A stretch of DNA of 9,992 nucleotides from a virus (IMGVR_UViG_2541047787_000003:1-9992), one strand, 5' to 3'. Counted from the first letter of the stretch, positions 733-9,992 are shown. The notes: generated by a model not told the origin, from the letters alone. Numbers and translations: made by a program.

Positions 733-3700
733 ATGGGTAAAGGCAGCAGTAAGGGGCATACCCCGCGCGAAGCGAAGGACAACCTGAAATCATCCCAGAT
801 GCTGAGCGTGATAGACGCCATCAGTGAAGGGCCGATTGAAGGTCCGGTGGATGGATTAAAAAGCGTACTGCTGAACAGTACGCCGGTGCTGGACAGTGAG
901 GGGAATACCAACATCGCCGGTGTCACGGTGGTGTTCCGGGCTGGTGAGCAGGAGCAGACTCCGCCGGAGGGATTTGAATCCTCCGGCTCCGAGACGGTGC
1001 TGGGTACGGAAGTGAAATATGACACGCCGATCACCCGGACCATCACGTCGGCAAACATTGACCGACTGCGTTTTACTTTCGGCGTGCAGGCACTGGTGGA
1101 AACCACCTCAAAGGGGGACAGGAATCCATCGGAAGTCCGCCTGCTGGTTCAGATACAACGTAACGGTGGCTGGGTGACGGAAAAGGACATCACCATTAAG
1201 GGTAAAACCACTTCACAGTATCTGGCCTCGGTGGTGGTGGATAACCTGCCGCCGCGCCCGTTCAGTATCCGGATGCGCAGGATGACGCCGGACAGCACCA
1301 CAGACCAGCTGCAGAACAAAACGCTCTGGTCGTCATACACCGAAATTATCGATGTGAAACAGTGCTACCCGAACACGGCACTGGTCGGCGTGCAGGTGGA
1401 CTCGGAGCAGTTCGGCAGCCAGCAGGTGAGCCGTAATTATCATCTTCGCGGGCGCATTCTGCAGGTGCCGTCGAACTATAACCCGCAGACGCGGCAATAC
1501 AGCGGTATCTGGGACGGAACGTTTAAGCCAGCATACAGCAACAACATGGCCTGGTGTCTGTGGGATATGCTGAACCATCCGCGCTACGGCATGGGGAAAC
1601 GTCTTGGTGCAGCAGATGTGGATAAATGGGCGCTGTATGTCATCGGCCAGTACTGCGACCAGTCGGTGCCGGACGGCTTTGGCGGCACGGAGCCGCGCAT
1701 CGCCTGTAATGCGTACCTGACCACACAGCGAAAGGCGTGGGATGTGCTCAGTGATTTCTGCTCGGCGATGCGCTGTATGCCGGTATGGAACGGGCAGACG
1801 CTGACATTCGTGCAGGACCGACCGTCGGATAAGGTGTGGACCTATAACCGCAGTAATGTGGTGATGCCGGATGATGGCGCGCCGTTCCGCTACAGCTTCA
1901 GCGCCCTGAAAGACCGCCATAATGCCGTTGAGGTGAACTGGATTGACCCGAACAACGGCTGGGAGACGGCGACAGAGCTTGTGGAGGATACGCAGGCTAT
2001 TGCCCGTTACGGTCGTAACGTCACGAAGATGGATGCTTTTGGCTGTACCAGCCGGGGGCAGGCACACCGCGCCGGGCTGTGGCTGATTAAAACAGAGCTG
2101 CTGGAAACGCAGACCGTGGACTTCAGCGTGGGCGCAGAAGGGCTTCGCCATGTGCCGGGCGATGTTATTGAAATCTGTGATGATGACTATGCCGGTATCA
2201 GCATCGGCGGGCGCGTGCTGGCGGTAAACAGCCAGACCCGGACGCTGACGCTCGACCGTGAAATCACGCTACCATCCTCCGGTACCACGCTGATAAGCCT
2301 GGTTGACGGAAGTGGCAATCCGGTCAGCGTGGAGGTTCAGTCCGTCACCGACGGCGTGAAGGTAAAAGTGAGCCGTGTTCCTGACGGCGTTGCCGGATAC
2401 AGCGTGTGGGGGCTGAAGTTGCCGACGCTGCGTCAGCGCCTGTTCCGCTGTGTGAGTATCCGTGAGAACGATGACGGCACGTATGCCATCACTGCCGTGC
2501 AGCATGTGCCGGAAAAAGAGGCCATCGTGGATAACGGGGCGCACTTTGACGGTGACCAGAGCGGCACGGTGAATGGTGTCACGCCGCCAGCAGTGCAGCA
2601 TCTGACCGCCGAAGTCACTGCAGACAGCGGGGAATATCAGGTGCTGGCGCGCTGGGACACACCGAAGGTGGTGAAGGGCGTGAGCTTCCTGCTCCGTCTG
2701 ACCGTGACAGCGGATGACGGCAGTGAGCGGCTGGTCAGCACGGCCCGGACGACGGAAACCACATACCGCTTCAGGCAGCTGGCGCTGGGGAACTACAGGC
2801 TGACAGTCCGGGCGGTAAATGCGTGGGGGCAGCAGGGAGATCCGGCGTCGGTATCGTTCCGGATTGCCGCACCGGCAGCACCGTCGAGGATTGAGCTGAC
2901 GCCGGGCTATTTTCAGATAACCGCCACGCCGCATCTTGCGGTTTATGATCCGACGGTACAGTTTGAGTTCTGGTTCTCGGAAAAGCGGATTGCGGATATC
3001 AGGCAGGTTGAAACCACAGCCCGCTATCTTGGTACGGCGCTGTACTGGATAGCCGCCAGTATCAATATCAAACCGGGCCATGATTATTACTTTTATATCC
3101 GCAGTGTGAACACCGTAGGCAAATCGGCATTTGTGGAGGCCGTCGGTCGGGCGAGCGATGATGCATCCGGCTATCTGGATTTTTTCAAAGGCGAGATAGG
3201 GAAAACCCATCTGGCTCAGGAGCTGTGGACGCAGATTGATAACGGTCAGCTTGCGCCTGACCTGGCTGAAATCAGGACGTCCATTACGGATGTCAGCAAT
3301 GAAATCACGCAGACCGTCAATAAGAAACTGGAAGACCAGAGTGCGGCAATTCAGCAGATACAGAAGGTTCAGGTTGATACAAATAATAACCTGAACAGCA
3401 TGTGGGCTGTGAAGCTGCAGCAGATGCAGGACGGACGCCTTTATATCGCGGGTATTGGTGCCGGTATTGAGAACACCCCTGACGGCATGCAGAGTCAGGT
3501 GCTGCTGGCGGCGGACAGGATTGCGATGGTTAATCCTGCGAATGGCAACACAAAACCGATGTTTGTTGGTCAGGGCGATCAGATATTCATGAACGACGTG
3601 TTCCTGAAACGCCTGACGGCTCCCACCATTACCAGCGGTGGAAATCCACCGGCATTTTCCCTGACACCGGACGGGCGACTGACGGCGAAAAATGCGGATA

Positions 3701-4212
3701 TCAGTGGCAGTGTGAATGCGAACGCCGGGACGCTCAACAATGTCACGATTAATGAAAACTGTCGGGTTCTGGGAAAACTGTCTGCGAACCAGATTGAAGG
3801 CGATCTCGTTAAAACAGTGGGCAAAGCTTTCCCCCGGGACTCCCGTGCACCGGAGCGGTGGCCATCAGGGACCATTACCGTCAGGGTTTATGACGATCAG
3901 CCGTTTGACCGGCAGATTGTTATTCCCGCGGTGGCGTTTCGTGGCGCTAAACATGAGCGGGAGAATAACGATATTTATTCGTCATGCCGCCTGATAGTGA
4001 AGAAAAACGGTGCTGAAATTTATAACCGTACCGCGCTGGATAATACGCTGGTTTATACAGGTGTTATTGATATGCCTGCTGGTCGCGGTCACATGACGCT
4101 GGAGTTTTCGGTATCAGCGTGGCTGGTAAATGACTGGTATCCCACAGCCAGTATCAGTGATTTGCTGGTTGTGGTGATGAAGAAATCCACAGCAGGTATC
4201 ACGATTAGCTGA
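733..4212 (+). CDS. J: Host specificity protein J (central tail fiber / tip attachment protein), 1159 aa
   Basis: ATG at 733 preceded by an RBS-like ggagcgtgagga. The long ORF translation ([20 protein letters not shown]...[55 protein letters not shown]...) matches lambda gpJ through the N-terminal and central parts as I recall them. Gene order I-J-lom is as in lambda. Confidence 0.95.
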
Positions 4213-4280: not shown

Positions 4281-4880
4281 ATGCGTAAAGTTTGTGCAGC
4301 CATTTTGTCCGCAGCCATCTGTCTGGCCGTATCCGGTGCGCCTGCATGGGCGTCTGAGCAGCAGGCCACACTGAGCGCAGGGTATCTTCATGCCCGTACG
4401 AACGCTCCCGGCAGCGATAATCTGAACGGGATTAACGTGAAATACCGTTATGAGTTTACGGACACGCTGGGGCTGATTACGTCATTCAGTTATGCCAACG
4501 CTGAAGATGAGCAAAAAACGCATTACAGCGATACCCGCTGGCATGAGGATTCCGTGCGTAACCGCTGGTTCAGCGTGATGGCGGGGCCGTCTGTGCGCGT
4601 GAATGAATGGTTCAGCGCGTATGCGATGGCAGGCGTGGCTTACAGCCGTGTGTCGACTTTTTCCGGGGATTATCTCCGCGTAACTGACAACAAGGGAAAA
4701 ACGCACGACGTGCTGACCGGAAGTGATGACGCTCGCCACAGTAACACCTCTCTGGCGTGGGGAGCTGGCGTGCAGTTTAACCCGACCGAATCCGTGGCCG
4801 TTGATGTCGCTTATGAAGGCTCCGGCAGTGGCAACTGGCGCACTGACGGGTTCATCGTGGGTGTCGGTTATAAGTTCTGA
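4281..4880 (+). CDS. lom: Outer membrane protein Lom (Ail/Lom family beta-barrel), 199 aa with N-terminal signal peptide
   Basis: ATG at 4281 with RBS gagagg 7 nt upstream. The translation starts MRKVCAAILSAAICLAVSGAPAWA (a signal peptide with an AxA cleavage motif) and ends ...DGFIVGVGYKF with a C-terminal aromatic residue, typical of outer-membrane beta-barrels. It matches lambda Lom as I recall it, in the same position after J. Confidence 0.9.
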   Translation: MRKVCAAILSAAICLAVSGAPAWASEQQATLSAGYLHARTNAPGSDNLNGINVKYRYEFTDTLGLITSFSYANAEDEQKTHYSDTRWHEDSVRNRWFSVMAGPSVRVNEWFSAYAMAGVAYSRVSTFSGDYLRVTDNKGKTHDVLTGSDDARHSNTSLAWGAGVQFNPTESVAVDVAYEGSGSGNWRTDGFIVGVGYKF

Positions 4881-4906
4881 TTAGCCAGGTAACACAGTGT
4901 TATGAC

Positions 4907-4934
4907 AGCCCGCCGGTTCAGGCGGGCTTTTTTG
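4907..4934 (+). terminator. Rho-independent terminator downstream of lom
   Basis: Stem agcccgcc (4907-4914) / ggcgggct (4921-4928) with loop ggttca, followed by tttttgt (4929-4935). It lies between the lom stop and the side tail fiber start. Confidence 0.65.
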
Positions 4935-4944
4935 TGGGGTGAAT

Positions 4945-7900
4945 ATGGCAGTAAAGATTTCAGGTGTACTGAAAGACGGTGCAGGTAAACCGGTACAGAA
5001 CTGCACAATCCAGCTGAAAGCAAAACGTAACAGCACCACGGTGGTGGTGAACACGGTGGCATCTGAAAATCCGGATGAAGCCGGGCGTTACAGCATGGAC
5101 GTTGAGTACGGTCAGTACAGCGTTATTCTGTTGGTGGAAGGATTCCCGCCGTCACATGCCGGGACCATCACCGTGTATGAAGATTCCCGACCCGGTACGC
5201 TGAATGATTTTCTCGGTGCCATGACGGAGGATGATGCCCGTCCGGAGGCACTGCGCCGCTTTGAACTGATGGTGGAAGAGGTGGCGCGTAACGCGTCCGC
5301 AGTGGCGCAGAACACAGCAGCCGCGAAGAAGTCAGCCAGCGATGCCGGCACATCAGCCCGTGAGGCGGCAACCCGTGCGACTGATGCTGCAGGCTCAGCA
5401 CGTGCAGCCAGCACGTCAGCCGGACAGGCCGCGTCGTCGGCTCAGTCAGCGTCTTCCAGCGCAGGAACGGCATCAGCAAAGGCTACTGAAGCATCAAAAA
5501 GTGCTGCCGCTGCAGAGTCTTCAAAAAGCGCGGCAGCCACCAGTGCCGGTGCAGCGAAAACGTCGGAAATGAATGCCGCAGCATCACAAAAATCTGCGGC
5601 CACATCTGCATCCACCGCGACCACGAAAGCGTCAGAAGCTGCCACCTCAGCCCGGGATGCGTCGGCTTCAAAAGTGGCGGCAAAATCATCAGAAACGAGC
5701 GCTGCCTCGAGCGCCGGCAGTGCAGCTTCCTCGGCAACGGCAGCAGGAAATTCCGCGAAGGCCGCAAAAACGTCTGAGACGAATGCGGATAACAGCGCAC
5801 AGGCGGCAGCAGACTCACAAACTGCATCGGCAAACTCCGCGACAGCAGCCAAAAAATCAGAAACCAACGCGAAAAATAGTGAGTCAGCAGCAAAGGTCAG
5901 CGAAACCAACGCTAAAGCGTCAGAGAACAAGGCGAAAGAATATCTCGACAAGGTCGGGGGACTCGTCAGCCCGATGACGCAATACGATTGGCCTGTTGTT
6001 ACTGCTAGTGAGTCTCTTTACATCAAGATCGCGAAACTTTCCGATCCTGGAACCAGCAGAAGTCATGTAACGCTAATGGTTACTAACGCTGGTAACTACG
6101 GCTCCCCTTACGGAAACATTGACTTTATCGAGATCTCGGCGCGCGGTCTGCCTTCTTTGCTTAGTGCGGATAATGTTTCTCGTCATCTGAGTATACGCCG
6201 CTTAGGGTCAACCGGGCTGACCGATAACAACCAGATGCGTTACGGCCTGGTTAAAGGTGACGGCTTTATTGAGGTTTGGGCATTCCAGGGTGCGTTTATT
6301 AACGACGCAAAGGTTGCGGTGCTGGCGCAGACAACACTAAACACAGAATTATACATTCCAGACGGATTTGTTAAGCAAACCGCCGCGCCTTCTGGATATA
6401 TTGAAGGCAACGTTGTAAGGATTTACGACCAGGTAAACAAGCCGACTAAAGCAGATTTGGGTCTTTCTAATGCTATGCTTACAGGCGCTTTCGGTCTTGG
6501 CGGTAGCGGGATATCAACAAACGGCAAGATGAGCGATGTAGAGATCTTAAAAGCTCTGCGTGACAAAGGTGGTCATTTCTGGCGCGGTGATAAGCCGACC
6601 GGAAGCACGGCGACCATTTATAGCCACGGTTCTGGTATATTCTCGCGGTGCGGCGATACGTGGTCAGCGATCAATATCGACTACTCAACCGCGAAGATTA
6701 AGATCTATGCCGGCAACGATGCCCGGCTTAACAACGGGACTTTTAGCGTCAATGAGCTATACGGCTCGGCAAACAAGCCGTCGAAATCGGATGTTGGACT
6801 TGGCAACGTAACGAACGATGCGCAGGTAAAAAAAACCGGCGATACAATGACCGGTGACTTGACAATCAAAAAAGGTACACCGTCAGTCTTCCTGCGGGCA
6901 GACAGTGGAGTCACCGCTTTGCGGTTTTATACTGGCGATAACACAGAGCGCGGCATAATCTATGCTGGTCCTAACACTGATTCGCTTGGCGAAGTTCGCA
7001 TCAGGGCAAAGACAGCAGGGGGGACATCAGGAGGGGATCTTGTTGTTCGTCACGACGGGAGGGTTGAAGTCCGTGATCTCACAGTAGCGTATAAAATTAA
7101 AAGCAGAACGATTGAGATTGCAAATACCGACACTGACTCATCGGCAACTACGCTAAGCATCTATGGAGTACAGCACACGCCGTTGGTTTTAACGCGTTCT
7201 GGTTCTTCTGAAAATGTGTCCATTGGGTTTAAGTTAGACAACATGAACCCAAAGTATCTTGGAATTGATACTAATGGGGATCTGGCTTTTGGTGAGAGTC
7301 CTGATCAGAAACAAAACAGCAAATTGATCACGCAAGCGAAACTCGACAAGGGATTAACGATTGGTGGTCAACTGGCTTTCAAAGGTACGACAGCGTTTTC
7401 AGCCGTTGCTACGTTCAGTGCCGGGATAGCAGGAGCCATCGAGCCGGAAAACATTGACGGCCAGACGGTTAATCTTAACAACCTGACCATCATCAAGTCA
7501 GATGCCGGGGCAGTTAAATACTATATTTGTCCATCCTCTGCAGGTGGTGCAAATATCACCAACAAGCCTGACGGCGTAACAGGTAACTTTTTGCTCCGTG
7601 TTGAATCGACTCGTAAGGTTAGGGATTCAGATTATGCGAACATGCAAACGCTGATTAACAGCGACACAAAACGTATATACGTTCGCTTTGTTGTTAATGG
7701 AAACTGGACAGCGTGGAGTCAGGTTGTTGTTTCCGGATGGAATCAGGATGTAACCGTCAGGTCGTTAACCTCGACGACTCCATCAAAATTAGGTGGCGGG
7801 CGGATTGATGTGCTTGGAAGTACGTCAGATTATGGCAGCATGAATTGTACCGTTCGTGGTGTTGATAGCACTGGAACCAATTCGGCGTGGTCGGTAGGCA

Positions 7901-8724
7901 CATCAGAAAGCACAGGCAAAATGTTGTTCCTGAAAAACCACAGAAGCAGCGCTCAAGTGCTGTTAAATGGCGATGATGGCGCGGTTCAACTACTAAGTGG
8001 CACTGTTAACGGTGCTACAGCGCAGGCGCTAACCATCAACAAAGATGAGGTTAACTCAACTGCCGATTTAGTAATTAGAAAACAAACAGGGACTGGCAAT
8101 CGTTTTGCTTTACTTAATTCAGGTAATTCAGAACTACCAGTTAGTATCAGGGTGTGGGGTTCCAGTACTCGACAAAACGTTTTTGAGGTTGGCACGTCTG
8201 CTGCGTATCTGTTTTATGCGCAAAAAACAACAGACGGGCAAAACCTTACTGTAAACGGAAGTGTTAACTGCACCACACTGAATCAGTCATCAGACCGCAG
8301 ACTGAAAGAAAATATCGAGATTATCGATAACGCGACTGACGCAATCCGCAAAATTAATGGATACACGTACACGCTCAAGGAGAATGGGGCACATTGCGCC
8401 GGGGTTATAGCCCAGGAAGTTGAAGAGGCCATCCCGGAGGCCGTTGGTTCATTCATCCATTACGGTGAAGAGTTGCAAGGTCCGACCGTTGACGGCAACG
8501 AGCTACGCGAAGAAACGCGCTATCTTAATGTTGACTACGCCGCCGTGACGGGCTTACTTGTTCAGTTCGCCCGTGAAACAGATGATCGCGTTACCGCGCT
8601 GGAAGAGGAAAACACAACGCTACGTCAAAATCTGGCAACAGCAGACACCCGGATCAGCACTCTGGAAAATCAGGTAAGCGAACTGGTTGCACTTGTCCGG
8701 CAGTTAACAGGAAGCGAACATTGA
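4945..8724 (+). CDS. stf: Side tail fiber protein, chimeric: lambda Stf-like N-terminus, Ala/Ser-rich shaft, divergent distal receptor-binding region, and C-terminal self-cleaving intramolecular chaperone domain
   Basis: The ORF track calls 4939-8724 from a GTG, but the ATG at 4945 gives MAVKISGVLKDGAGKPVQNCTIQLKA..., which matches the lambda Stf N-terminus as recalled and has a ggggtg RBS upstream. The distal part carries fiber-type motifs (NKPSKSDVGLGNVTNDAQVKKTGDTMTGDLTI). The C-terminus carries the S-D-R-R-L-K-E-N motif and a terminal coiled coil typical of peptidase S74 chaperone domains. Confidence 0.85.
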   Translation: MAVKISGVLKDGAGKPVQNCTIQLKAKRNSTTVVVNTVASENPDEAGRYSMDVEYGQYSVILLVEGFPPSHAGTITVYEDSRPGTLNDFLGAMTEDDARPEALRRFELMVEEVARNASAVAQNTAAAKKSASDAGTSAREAATRATDAAGSARAASTSAGQAASSAQSASSSAGTASAKATEASKSAAAAESSKSAAATSAGAAKTSEMNAAASQKSAATSASTATTKASEAATSARDASASKVAAKSSETSAASSAGSAASSATAAGNSAKAAKTSETNADNSAQAAADSQTASANSATAAKKSETNAKNSESAAKVSETNAKASENKAKEYLDKVGGLVSPMTQYDWPVVTASESLYIKIAKLSDPGTSRSHVTLMVTNAGNYGSPYGNIDFIEISARGLPSLLSADNVSRHLSIRRLGSTGLTDNNQMRYGLVKGDGFIEVWAFQGAFINDAKVAVLAQTTLNTELYIPDGFVKQTAAPSGYIEGNVVRIYDQVNKPTKADLGLSNAMLTGAFGLGGSGISTNGKMSDVEILKALRDKGGHFWRGDKPTGSTATIYSHGSGIFSRCGDTWSAINIDYSTAKIKIYAGNDARLNNGTFSVNELYGSANKPSKSDVGLGNVTNDAQVKKTGDTMTGDLTIKKGTPSVFLRADSGVTALRFYTGDNTERGIIYAGPNTDSLGEVRIRAKTAGGTSGGDLVVRHDGRVEVRDLTVAYKIKSRTIEIANTDTDSSATTLSIYGVQHTPLVLTRSGSSENVSIGFKLDNMNPKYLGIDTNGDLAFGESPDQKQNSKLITQAKLDKGLTIGGQLAFKGTTAFSAVATFSAGIAGAIEPENIDGQTVNLNNLTIIKSDAGAVKYYICPSSAGGANITNKPDGVTGNFLLRVESTRKVRDSDYANMQTLINSDTKRIYVRFVVNGNWTAWSQVVVSGWNQDVTVRSLTSTTPSKLGGGRIDVLGSTSDYGSMNCTVRGVDSTGTNSAWSVGTSESTGKMLFLKNHRSSAQVLLNGDDGAVQLLSGTVNGATAQALTINKDEVNSTADLVIRKQTGTGNRFALLNSGNSELPVSIRVWGSSTRQNVFEVGTSAAYLFYAQKTTDGQNLTVNGSVNCTTLNQSSDRRLKENIEIIDNATDAIRKINGYTYTLKENGAHCAGVIAQEVEEAIPEAVGSFIHYGEELQGPTVDGNELREETRYLNVDYAAVTGLLVQFARETDDRVTALEEENTTLRQNLATADTRISTLENQVSELVALVRQLTGSEH
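5280..5950 (+). repeat. Low-complexity Ala/Ser/Thr/Lys-rich repetitive coding region (fiber shaft) within stf
   Basis: About 220 aa dominated by A, S, T and K with recurring K-x-S-E-(T/M)-N-A units, for example aaaacgtcggaaatgaatgcc, aaaacgtctgagacgaatgcg, aaaaaatcagaaaccaacgcg and aaggtcagcgaaaccaacgct. This explains the many spurious overlapping ORFs called here in other frames. Confidence 0.6.
8293..8721 (+). other. Predicted C-terminal intramolecular chaperone / autoproteolytic domain (peptidase S74-like) of the tail fiber, about 143 aa, released after trimerisation
   Basis: Motif NQSS|DRRLKENIEIID (codons at 8281-8319) has the Ser and Lys spaced 5 residues apart, as in the catalytic Ser-Lys dyad of endosialidase-type chaperone domains. 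It is followed by ...YLNVDYAAVTGLL... and a terminal heptad-like stretch RVTALEEENTTLRQNLATADTRISTLENQVSELVALVRQL. Confidence 0.6.
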
Positions 8725-8907
8725 TATCCTTCAAGCTCTGAAGGAGGCTGTTCCCGGTACGTTCAGACTGTTGTTGAGCTGGAAATCGCAACGGAGGAAG
8801 AAACCTTGTTGCTGGAAGCCTGGAAAAAGTATCGGGTGTTGCTGAACCGTGTTGATACATCAACTGCACCTGATATTGAGTGGCCTACGAACCCTGTCAG
8901 GGAGTAA
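8725..8907 (+). pseudogene. tfa: Remnant of a tail fiber assembly (tfa) gene 3' end, with no start codon
   Basis: The 60 codons immediately after the stf stop, in the same frame, read [60 protein letters not shown]. The ...[25 protein letters not shown]... portion is the conserved C-terminal signature of Tfa-family assembly chaperones as I recall it. There is no ATG/GTG/TTG start in this frame and no N-terminal Tfa domain. Confidence 0.6.
8779..8862 (+). repeat. Direct repeat copy A (tfa 3'-end sequence), partner at 9828-9911
   Basis: ctggaaatcgcaacggaggaagaaa (8779-8803) is identical to 9828-9852. Similarity continues through ...tatcgggtgttgctgaaccgtgttgatacatca, which pairs with ...tatcgggtattgttgaatcgagttgatacatca; by eye roughly 80% identical over about 84 nt. 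Confidence 0.7.
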
Positions 8908-8921
8908 TCATTGGGATTATG

Positions 8922-8954
8922 CCGCAGCACGTCTTAAGCAAGAACGTGCTGCGG
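8922..8954. other. Strong hairpin (11-bp perfect inverted repeat) at the convergent junction between the tfa remnant and the methyltransferase gene; possible bidirectional terminator
   Basis: ccgcagcacgt (8922-8932) and acgtgctgcgg (8944-8954) are exact reverse complements around an 11-nt loop. A T-run (8965-8970) follows on the + strand but overlaps the methyltransferase codons, so it is not a canonical terminator. Confidence 0.4.
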
Positions 8955-8961
8955 TTGGATG

Positions 8962-9630
8962 CTATTTTTTCCCTGAAGCGGAAAACATTACTACAGTACC
9001 TTGAACCTTGGTTTTAACATTCTCGAAATGCTCTGAGAGTATATGTGTTAAGCCTTCTTCGGAATCTTTTGTGTTTGAAAAGATACCTTTCTGATTGTAA
9101 ATGCGCATCAGTTTTTGACCGAAGCTATTGTGCACAACTCCATCGCCAAGAATTGTGGCTCCGTATAGAGTTCCATCGTCAGTTAAGGCCTGCGCCGCAT
9201 TGCGTATTACACAGCATTTTGTAGATATATTTCCAGGCAGGCAGTGAAGAAGGTAAAACATGGAAATGGAATCAAATTGACCATGTAACGCCGCGGGATA
9301 AGGTTCAAAAACATCATGGTTAATTTTATGTTTAATTTTTGATTCCCCAGCCCTTGTAGATGCCGCGTTCAGGCTAGCTTCGTTCAAATCCATTAAAGAT
9401 ATCAGACTACTCTCAGGTACGTGAGTAAGGTAAAACCCAGTTCCAACACCAATATCCAGATGGTTGTTACCTAAATGTTCCAGAAAGTGTGGAAGAAGGT
9501 GTTCCTTTGTAGGACATCCCCATGCAAGCCGATTTGATACTCCCAAAACCCACCAGTCATAAAGCTTTAGGGTAAGTGGTGTGTAAATTTTAGCCCCATC
9601 ATCTGTGTTTTTTTTCATTAATTTCACCAT
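8962..9630 (-). CDS. Class I SAM-dependent methyltransferase, 222 aa, substrate unknown; AT-rich cargo (moron) gene
   Basis: Minus-strand ORF from ATG (9628-9630) to TAG (8962-8964). It has Rossmann-fold methyltransferase motifs: motif I HLDIGVGTGFYL (GxGxG), an acidic residue ending beta-2 (LISLMDLNEAS), and motif II FDSISMFYLLHCLPG. No DPPY/NPPY or PCQ/ENV DNA-methyltransferase motifs were seen. Composition is visibly AT-richer than I, J and lom, and orientation is opposite to the late operon. Confidence 0.75.
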   Translation of the reverse strand: MVKLMKKNTDDGAKIYTPLTLKLYDWWVLGVSNRLAWGCPTKEHLLPHFLEHLGNNHLDIGVGTGFYLTHVPESSLISLMDLNEASLNAASTRAGESKIKHKINHDVFEPYPAALHGQFDSISMFYLLHCLPGNISTKCCVIRNAAQALTDDGTLYGATILGDGVVHNSFGQKLMRIYNQKGIFSNTKDSEEGLTHILSEHFENVKTKVQGTVVMFSASGKK

Positions 9631-9659
9631 GTTATAGTTTTATTTGTGAATTAAATCAA
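9631..9659 (-). promoter_or_regulatory. Candidate sigma70-type promoter for the methyltransferase gene
   Basis: On the minus strand: TTGATT (complement of 9654-9659), a 17-nt spacer, then TATAAC (complement of 9631-9636), immediately upstream of the start. The region is AT-rich so chance matches are likely, and the leader would be very short unless the second ATG (9616-9618, giving MKKN...) is the true start. Confidence 0.25.
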
Positions 9660-9686: not shown

Positions 9687-9992
9687 ATGCTGCCGCAGCA
9701 TAGCGATATTGAAATAGCATGGTATGCTTCGATACAGCAGGAGCCGAATGGCTGGAAGACCGTCACCACACAGTTCTACATCCAGGAATTCAGTGAGTAT
9801 ATTGCGCCACTGCAGGATGCTGTAGATCTGGAAATCGCAACGGAGGAAGAAAGATCGTTGCTGGAGGCATGGAATAAATATCGGGTATTGTTGAATCGAG
9901 TTGATACATCAGTAGCTCTGGGTATGAAGCTGTTTGTAACTCATGTTACAGTAACAGCCATTACTATCTCGAAGGTGCAAAATGTATATTGA
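9687..9992 (+). CDS. Small Tfa-like protein (tail fiber assembly C-terminal motif with divergent tail), 101 aa; possibly a truncated or alternative tfa
   Basis: ATG at 9687 with RBS aagggg 5-6 nt upstream; stop TGA at 9990-9992. The translation contains ...[29 protein letters not shown]..., homologous to the Tfa C-terminal signature, but then diverges ([26 protein letters not shown]) and lacks the terminal APDIEWP motif. It is too short for a full Tfa. Confidence 0.5.
9828..9911 (+). repeat. Direct repeat copy B (tfa 3'-end sequence), partner at 8779-8862
   Basis: See copy A. The 25-nt core ctggaaatcgcaacggaggaagaaa is identical, with flanking similarity to ...gttgatacatca. Confidence 0.7.

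Follow-up and report, generated by a model that had tools for sequence, protein, structure and literature searches.

We estimate at about 85% the probability that positions 4945–8724 of the window, a 9,992-nt stretch of viral DNA, contain an intact stf, the side tail fiber gene of a lambdoid prophage inserted at a DLP12-type site beside ompT in E. coli, and that its product is a multi-module mosaic. Four modules succeed one another in the protein: a lambda-type collar with its proximal coiled coil (aa 1 to ~280), which would fix the fiber to the tail tip; a shaft resembling the L-shaped tail fiber pb1 of phage T5 (aa ~284–960); a tip that is not T5-like but is common to fibers of other coliphages (aa ~961–1117); and an intramolecular chaperone of the S74 type (aa 1118–1261).

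An uninterrupted gene with a lambda-type front

The gene lies on the plus strand, as do all features described below, and forms one continuous ORF from ATG 4945 to 8724 (1259 codons plus TGA in the ORF listing of the window), free of stop codons and frameshifts. An alternative GTG start at 4939 gives a 1261-aa ORF, to which the residue numbers used here refer (for numbering from ATG 4945, subtract 2). The true start is almost certainly ATG 4945, matching both lambda (MAVKISG) and the PGAP annotation, and an SD-like GGGGTGA lies directly 5' of it. The gene order is I, J, lom, stf, with stf in the lambdoid tail operon position after J and lom, and the window is 95% identical to lambda DNA across I–J. 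The insertion site is that of the cryptic prophage DLP12, tfa fragments and an inserted methyltransferase gene are found downstream, and in at least one strain (H13) the gene is broken by an IS2, all of which might mark the locus as part of a defective DLP12-like prophage in decay, its fiber non-functional and the intact ORF incidental. We consider such decay improbable, since the 3.8-kb ORF stays open, the upstream I, J and lom are full length, the catalytic and attachment motifs are all conserved, a plaque-forming phage genome has a functioning near-relative, and the conserved and variable blocks track domain boundaries, as selection predicts.

The stretch 4945–5346, which holds the collar (tail-attachment) domain and the first part of the shaft, matches the Pfam prophage tail fibre N-terminal family PF08400 over aa 3–136 (E=5e-72; 240.5 bits against a cut-off of 26.6), and aa 3–96 match the structure of the Ur-lambda Stf collar (residues 1–94; PDB 9e7m; E=3e-51). 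With aa 1–115 also 96–99% identical to many lambdoid phage Stf proteins, the lambda Stf attachment region of ~110 aa proposed in the first-pass annotation is confirmed. The next segment, recognized by composition and homology, is an Ala/Ser-rich coiled-coil shaft (5284–5943, aa 116–335) that ends at a KEYLD motif and is as GC-rich as had been claimed (Ala+Ser 58%, GC 0.586, GC2 0.74, GC3 0.49); it is homologous to both the proximal coiled coil of lambda Stf and T5 pb1 aa 36–205. Collar, linker and proximal coiled coil are 80–95% identical to Ur-lambda Stf up to aa ~300, with the gene in the same position. In Ur-lambda, twelve copies of Stf form a collar at the gpV/gpM junction (PMC12617516), and attachment is presumably identical here. 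From nt ~5787, however, the window's stf is unlike Ur-lambda Stf throughout, and the fiber lacks the gp37-like distal coiled coil and the OmpC-binding domain.

A lambda/T5-type crossover within the Ala/Ser shaft

A three-way alignment and breakpoint test placed the change from lambda-type to T5 pb1-type sequence at 5733–5787 (~aa 265–283). At sites that distinguish lambda from T5, the window sides with lambda in 49 of 54 cases before nt 5733, and after nt 5754 it sides with T5 in 62 of 79 (Fisher P=4e-16 for the best split, uncorrected). Across 5690–5780, lambda and T5 DNA are themselves identical at 24–26 of 30 positions, and lambda stf and T5 ltf share a shaft patch of ~100 nt at ~85% identity. 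DNA homology to lambda stops at nt 5786, homology to most E. coli stf genes is lost at 5783–5786, and breakpoints in the E. coli population lie at ~5786 and ~5918. The crossover thus falls inside the Ala/Ser shaft, 150–200 nt upstream of the junction first proposed at ~5940, while 5918–5940 is a genuine second breakpoint that separates different S74-type fibers within E. coli. In the literature that we searched, we found no explicit description of this lambda/T5-type junction.

A shift to AT-richer sequence at ~5950 had also been claimed, and raw GC does fall there (0.59–0.63 over 5250–5850, 0.48–0.49 over 5850–6450). Composition along the gene is accordingly not uniform in sliding windows, but the step is confined to codon position 2: at ~5940, GC2 drops from 0.74 to 0.45, whereas GC3 is 0.49 before and 0.53 after. 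Because GC3 does not fall, the step reflects amino-acid content (Ala/Ser codons) and not different ancestry. The GC drop near 5940 marks a domain boundary, and T5 pb1 has the identical shaft-end boundary at KEYLD; the codon-position split rules out the step as a sign of foreign origin.

These observations bear directly on the possibility that AT-rich foreign DNA was captured recently, in this lineage only, from ~5940 onward, with the composition step as its junction. Although raw GC drops by about 0.10 near 5900–5950 and the population breakpoint at ~5918 is real, such a capture is very unlikely given the steady GC3, the T5-type sequence already present from ~5754, the shared KEYLD shaft end, and the presence of the junction in phages Ayreon and vB_EcoS-640R1 and in hundreds of E. 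coli genomes. Moreover, identity to T5 of just 52% at the amino acid level and 70% at the DNA level makes this an old event, and in T5 itself the shared shaft has a T5-like GC3 of 0.28 and is therefore also old.

Shaft, tip, chaperone and tfa relic

The pb1-like shaft spans 5788–7818 (aa ~284–960). Window aa 157–1028 align with T5 pb1 aa 36–880 at 51.9% identity over about 870 residues, and the DNA is 70% identical over nt 5677–6862, so that T5 pb1, named at first only as a candidate relative, proved correct. Per 30-aa block, identity to pb1 is 40–83% until aa ~960 and below 25% beyond it. A profile as long as pb1 (phrog_24369, 1396 positions) aligns with aa 211–969 (E=3e-293), and T5-like Salmonella phages and Klebsiella phages are 54–59% identical over the pb1-like part. 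Apart from the Ala/Ser shaft ending in KEYLD, the two fibers share a KPSKSDVGL motif; they differ at the front, where the first ~35 residues of pb1, its N-terminus for docking to the T5 collar, are absent and the lambda collar domain stands instead.

Of the two fiber motifs reported earlier for the distal region, NKPSKSDVGLGNV was located at aa 612 (nt 6772), and GDTMTGDLTI follows it at aa 634 (nt 6838). An internal variable cassette (6829–7548, aa 631–870) begins near GDTMTGDL and is visible as a drop in identity to the Ayreon and 640R1 fibers: the three blocks before it (aa 541–630) are 83–100% identical to 640R1 and 67–83% to Ayreon, the cassette itself is about 50–63% identical to either, and most blocks after it are at 83–100%. 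At least four further module boundaries were found, at aa ~327, ~631, ~870 and ~1105. The proposed module swap therefore stands insofar as a lambda-type front is joined to a different fiber lineage, but it is not a single two-part exchange, and the tip is not T5-like.

The distal tip (7819–8289, aa ~961–1117) is presumably the receptor-binding end of the mature fiber. Here, no significant similarity was detected by BLASTP (E>1) to the polymannose-binding domain of T5 pb1 (aa 970–1263), and hhalign against pb1 aa 970–1396 found no alignment beyond the cleavage motif; at the sequence level, we thus rejected the view that the tip is a mannan-binding domain diverged from that of T5. The tip measures about 157 residues as against the 294 of pb1's bullet-shaped domain, with similarity undetectable by sequence. 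It is common, by contrast, to the Stf of lambdoid phage mEp460 (70%) and to the fibers of FritzHoffmann and the 111.8-kb phage slur09 (62%), and the GC3 minimum of the gene (0.32) lies at aa 1021–1110. Sequence and profile matches in the PDB were limited to the lambda Stf collar domain, the chaperone-like region of S16 gp37 (6f45), T4 gp34 repeats and, weakly, lambda gpJ residues 800–894 (E~1e-4), and gave no clue to the receptor. The NCBIfam search returned no meaningful family, its single match being a spurious coiled-coil hit to SMC. An AlphaFold2 monomer of tip and chaperone (aa 931–1261), built on a 22-sequence alignment, had a mean pLDDT of 53 and a pTM of 0.31, a poor model overall in which only the helix at the C-terminus and some of the tip exceeded a pLDDT of 70.

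The claimed S74-type C-terminal chaperone (8290–8721, aa 1118–1261) was recovered: PF13884 (Peptidase_S74) matches aa 1118–1169 with 60.1 bits against a cut-off of 22, and the SDRRLK motif (Ser1118 to Lys1123) aligns with SDARLK of T5 pb1 (Ser1264 to Lys1269). The two fibers thus share a C-terminal S74 chaperone with the motif S-D-x-R-L-K, although the domains can be aligned only around it. Ser188 and Lys193 of the aligned fragment are invariant in 22 homologs, in which the last ~100 aa of the C-terminus are nearly invariant as well. The roles of the cleavage residues in pb1 were established by biochemistry and structure (PMC4690869), and by analogy, we predict self-cleavage before Ser1118 with Lys1123 as the presumed partner.

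Downstream, a tfa relic (8761–8907) without a start codon follows in frame behind the stf stop and preserves the final 48 codons of a tail fiber assembly gene of lambda type (38 of 48 amino acids identical to lambda Tfa residues 147–194), in agreement with the decayed tfa noted in the first pass and with PGAP, which also annotates a truncated tfa here. Homology to lambda DNA returns at 8762–8956 (85%) and covers only the last 146 nt of tfa. Since it resumes exactly at the relic, the distal part of stf and most of tfa were replaced as one block. The window contains no intact tfa, nor the lambda arrangement of a gp37-like distal region with a separate downstream Tfa chaperone; in contrast to Ur-lambda with its Stf and Tfa, the fiber brings its own chaperone, predicted to be cleavable. 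Some function might in principle still come from two tfa fragments that persist nearby. Nothing was found in support of stop-codon readthrough into the relic, which would be in frame by chance one time in three.

Distribution, origin and use

The Stf of phage Ayreon (MF807953) is 82% identical in amino acids end to end, and that of vB_EcoS-640R1, a partial record, is 87% identical along its length. Together with the mEp460 Stf, both share the position after J and lom, the collar-to-S74 architecture and an identical left junction. Ayreon even has the same stf TGA followed by the 48-codon tfa relic, which also lies behind stf in strain LH13-b. Ayreon differs in that the downstream methyltransferase gene is missing, identity in the cassette (aa 631–870) is just ~55%, and that in the tip and chaperone start (aa 1051–1170) is 70–83%; given the divergence of cassette and tip, receptor specificity may differ. 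No full tfa occurs within 4 kb downstream of the Ayreon stf. Ayreon is a phage isolated on E. coli K-12 whose temperate nature was shown, and its genome announcement does not discuss the fiber. Because side fibers are dispensable for plating in both lambda and T5 (PMC12617516), Ayreon's viability is no proof of folding without Tfa. At least 80% of the gene is present in 305 complete E. coli genomes, whereas strain LH13-b shares only the flanks (4901–5918 and 8251–8887). A special event in this window is therefore not what we see: the design is old and common, and the architecture is already known, having a RefSeq product name and occurring in sequenced cultured phages. From end to end, the protein can indeed be aligned with a known set of fibers (Ayreon Stf; phrog_6578), yet the mosaic reading stands, as those fibers are the same chimera.

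The family is nevertheless often divided in databases, where many entries are ~620-aa "proteins" starting inside the ORF. PGAP splits the locus into an N-terminal "pseudogene" (4945–5922) and a "pyocin knob domain-containing S74 family peptidase" (5974–8724, window coordinates). That these are truly two genes, a truncated stf and an independent S74 peptidase gene starting at ATG 5974, is scarcely credible even though RefSeq splits identical copies in the same way, since the frame is open throughout, the split falls where different PGAP protein models end (suggesting an annotation artefact), Ayreon and 640R1 each annotate a single Stf that matches over the whole length, PGAP itself names a fused protein in LH13-b, and a distal part without the collar domain could not attach to the tail.

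For the multi-module stf, we propose that the left junction arose by homologous or relaxed-homologous recombination within the ~100-nt shaft segment common to lambda stf and T5-type ltf, with transfer either from a T5-like phage to a lambdoid phage or the reverse. The right-hand junction would lie just short of the 3' end of tfa, with a single block replacing the lambda distal receptor-binding region together with most of tfa, and cassettes may later have been exchanged between the conserved shaft end on one side and the chaperone domain with the tfa relic on the other. More tentatively, and with considerable doubt, these flanks might act as standing homology arms (left, 5690–5918, the identity patch and shaft end; right, 8251–8907, the chaperone domain and tfa relic) that let receptor-binding cassettes move repeatedly between T5-like or other coliphages (slur09, FritzHoffmann) and resident lambdoid prophages, the relic being kept as a right arm toward Tfa-type fibers and not by accident. 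By analogy with T5 pb1 and the K1F endosialidase, the C-terminal chaperone would guide three chains into a trimer and would then cut itself off before Ser1118 through the Ser–Lys pair and expose the tip. The exposed tip may bind a cell-surface receptor, probably LPS or a polysaccharide, and speed adsorption before J meets the main receptor; a separate Tfa would probably not be needed.

Mosaicism of tail fibers between unrelated phages is textbook knowledge, and with this architecture named in RefSeq and present in sequenced phages, the scientific importance of the finding is small. Its practical side concerns annotation, as PGAP split this intact 1259-codon gene in several RefSeq copies examined, which can mislead predictions of prophage intactness and host range. 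The natural fiber also resembles the engineered chimeras of lambda Stf with K1F, K5 or P2 (Brödel et al. 2024, PMC11338833) in joining the lambda Stf N-terminus to a foreign distal receptor-binding module, and the K1F fiber, too, has an S74 chaperone (PMC4690869). Those chimeras, which are artificial and fused at lambda Stf aa 393 or 528 and not at ~aa 265–283 as here, retarget lambda particles, with efficient cosmid delivery in the case of lambda-K1F (PMC11338833). The natural junction at about lambda Stf aa 265–283, in a segment common to T5-type fibers, and the KEYLD shaft end are thus ready-made fusion points that could serve to retarget lambda particles without Tfa.

Architecture of the stf gene and its annotation

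The window comes from a lambdoid prophage and represents its distal tail region. Tail assembly gene I (end portion, 1-672), J (733-4212) and a full-length Ail/Lom family gene, lom (4281-4880; PF06316, E = 5e-126), are followed by the long open reading frame of the side tail fiber gene stf (4939/4945-8724). Numbered from GTG 4939, the stf product (Stf) comprises 1261 aa; translation almost certainly begins at ATG 4945 (subtract 2 from residue numbers), which is preceded by a Shine-Dalgarno-like GGGGTGA and opens with lambda's MAVKISG. In several of the identical and near-identical copies examined, PGAP divides the gene into an N-terminal 'pseudogene' (4945-5922) and a 'pyocin knob domain-containing S74 family peptidase' (5974-8724; stf lies at 6007-9786 in L001). 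The reading frame is continuous across this split, and many database entries for the protein family are correspondingly shortened to ~620 aa.

All features listed in the first-pass annotation were found in the sequence. The lambda-type N-terminus carries the collar domain (PF08400, aa 3-136, E = 5e-72) and matches residues 1-94 of the solved Ur-lambda Stf (PDB 9e7m, E = 3e-51); over aa 1-115 it shares 96-99% identity with many lambdoid Stf proteins. It is followed by an Ala/Ser-rich shaft (aa 116-335; 58% Ala+Ser, GC 0.586), by the two fiber motifs that had been quoted (aa 612 and aa 634), and by a C-terminal S74-type chaperone domain (aa 1118-1261), in which PF13884 (Peptidase_S74) scored 60.1 bits (cut-off 22) at aa 1118-1169. 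The equally anticipated shift toward AT-richer sequence is seen near nt 5850-5950, where raw GC falls from ~0.60 to ~0.48.

Position of the lambda/T5-type junction

This compositional step at ~5940 had been read as a sign of foreign origin and as the junction itself; neither reading held. By codon position, the drop falls almost entirely in position 2 (0.74 to 0.45) and stems from Ala, Ser and Thr codons, while GC3 shows no drop (0.49 in the shaft, 0.53 over the 295 codons that follow). The step marks where the Ala/Ser coiled coil stops, at a KEYLD motif, and pb1, the L-shaped tail fiber protein of phage T5, has an equivalent coiled-coil end at KEYLD, residue 205. Elsewhere, GC3 is ~0.6 in I, J, lom and the first 150 stf codons, reaches its minimum of 0.32 at aa 1021-1110, within the presumed receptor-binding tip (aa ~961-1117), and returns to 0.52-0.58 in the chaperone domain.

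Pairwise comparisons located the change of lineage upstream. Blocks of 30 residues are 80-95% identical to lambda Stf as far as aa 300, beyond which identity is abruptly lost, with DNA homology to lambda (85%) stopping at nt 5786. Identity to T5 pb1 is 70-83% starting at aa 241 and 40-80% on to ~aa 960, with 70% DNA identity over nt 5677-6862. A three-way alignment revealed that the lambda and T5 fiber genes themselves have one shaft segment in common (24-26/30 identical DNA between lambda stf and T5 ltf, the pb1 gene, across nt 5690-5780), directly 3' of which lies a 21-nt lambda insertion (ARSSETA) absent from the window and from T5. At sites that differ between lambda and T5, the window agrees with lambda at 49/54 up to nt 5733 and with T5 at 62/79 from nt 5754 (Fisher P = 4e-16 at the best split, uncorrected). 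Because of these homology ends and the site-by-site test, the crossover is placed at ~nt 5733-5787, within the coiled-coil shaft and 150-200 nt upstream of the proposed junction. In this patch, the two genes are alike enough to permit homologous or relaxed-homologous recombination.

The earlier coordinate nevertheless coincides with a genuine second breakpoint, between S74-type cassettes, although it is not the lambda/foreign junction. In a survey of E. coli genomes with nt 5500-6300 as the query, homology ends recurrently at ~5783-5786 for most stf genes, stfR included, and at ~5917-5918 for other S74-type fibers. In support of this second breakpoint, strain LH13-b carries at the same chromosomal site a 906-aa fiber that matches the window at 4901-5918 (95%) and 8251-8887 (85%), the latter covering the end of the tip, the chaperone domain and the tfa relic, while its centre is different. 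The mosaic is not limited to two modules, as seen in phages Ayreon and vB_EcoS-640R1, whose Stf proteins are 82% and 87% identical to that of the window overall; identity falls to about 55% over aa 631-870 and is high on either side. Within this variable cassette, T5 ltf is 82% DNA-identical to nt 7213-7336, an unusually conserved island. A profile of homologs also gave a weak match (E~1e-4) to lambda gpJ residues 800-894 (PDB 8iyk, 8xcj) at nt ~7250-7520 (~aa 770-861; coordinates estimated from profile positions).

Right junction, downstream genes and chromosomal setting

The decayed tfa (tail fiber assembly chaperone gene) noted earlier was recovered at nt 8761-8907. It codes for no more than the C-terminal 48 residues of a lambda-type Tfa (38/48 identical) and lacks a start codon. 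Lambda homology returns at nt 8762-8956, comprising the last 146 nt of tfa and ~50 nt beyond; thus, one block, 5787-8761, occupies the place of lambda's distal stf and most of tfa. The 48-codon relic is in frame with stf, directly behind its TGA stop (8722-8907), and Ayreon keeps exactly the same arrangement; the in-frame placing is probably chance together with common ancestry.

Between this relic and a second tfa-derived ORF lies a class I SAM-dependent methyltransferase gene (222 aa, 8962-9630, minus strand, GC ~0.42), which looks like an inserted cargo gene, because Ayreon homology jumps from 8997 to 9657 and omits it. The second ORF (9687-9992+) has its own ATG and reaches the window end; PGAP labels it a truncated tfa. 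It matches phrog_2341 (an 88-position profile annotated as unknown function) end to end (E = 5e-56) and bears the Tfa C-terminal motif (Caudo_TAP profile positions 75-121).

Identical copies in complete E. coli chromosomes adjoin ompT and envY, where K-12 has the cryptic prophage DLP12. The lom gene is a divergent allele; with the search sensitivity applied, no more than 58 nt could be aligned to lambda lom. Up to nt 3229, J shares 95% DNA identity with lambda J; the value is 78% over 3399-3762, and the last ~450 nt of J gave no DNA match to lambda J. The C-terminal 399 aa of the J product match the solved 'A8 gpJ' variant (PDB 9wca, E = 3e-157) more strongly than they match lambda J (E = 6e-136), so the primary receptor may not be LamB.

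Relatives and proposed working of the fiber

That phages exchange fiber modules horizontally has been known for a long time, and the window's stf is an ordinary, already catalogued mosaic fiber, correctly recognized as such at first pass. The closest known objects, the Stf proteins of Ayreon, 640R1 and mEp460, have the same design, which is also reflected in the RefSeq product name 'prophage tail fiber N-terminal domain and S74 family endopeptidase-containing protein'. At least six complete E. coli genomes carry a 100% identical copy of the gene, and 305 E. coli genomes contain 80% or more of it. Our literature searches found no paper describing the lambda/T5-type junction itself.

The tip displayed no detectable similarity to the T5 polymannose-binding domain. 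The Stf tip of lambdoid mEp460 shares 70% identity with it, and fibers of FritzHoffmann and slur09 (a 111.8-kb phage) share 62%. Searches of PDB and NCBIfam returned nothing informative on the tip, and the AlphaFold2 monomer model built for aa 931-1261 was of low quality (pLDDT 53).

The working steps of the fiber can be proposed from established knowledge of its component families. The trimer would be held on the tail by the lambda collar domain at the gpV/gpM junction, where 12 Stf copies make up four fibers (PMC12617516). The C-terminal domain of T5 pb1 acts as an intramolecular chaperone and is removed at Ser1264, aided by Lys1269, after trimer folding, and uncleaved pb1 shows no receptor competition (PMC4690869). 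The window's S1118 and K1123 lie in the same S-D-x-R-L-K motif, and both positions are invariant in 22 homologs. By analogy with pb1, the chaperone would self-cleave after trimer folding, leaving a mature fiber predicted to end at residue 1117, and a separate Tfa should be unnecessary. Ayreon, a demonstrated temperate phage isolated on E. coli K-12, carries the same fiber with a tfa relic only, consistent with Tfa independence. Engineered lambda-K1F Stf chimeras allow efficient cosmid delivery by lambda particles (PMC11338833). Both cases are supportive and fall short of proof, since side fibers are dispensable for plating of lambda and T5 (PMC12617516). Since lambda's OmpC-binding region is entirely absent from the window's Stf, it can safely be inferred that receptor specificity has been altered relative to lambda.
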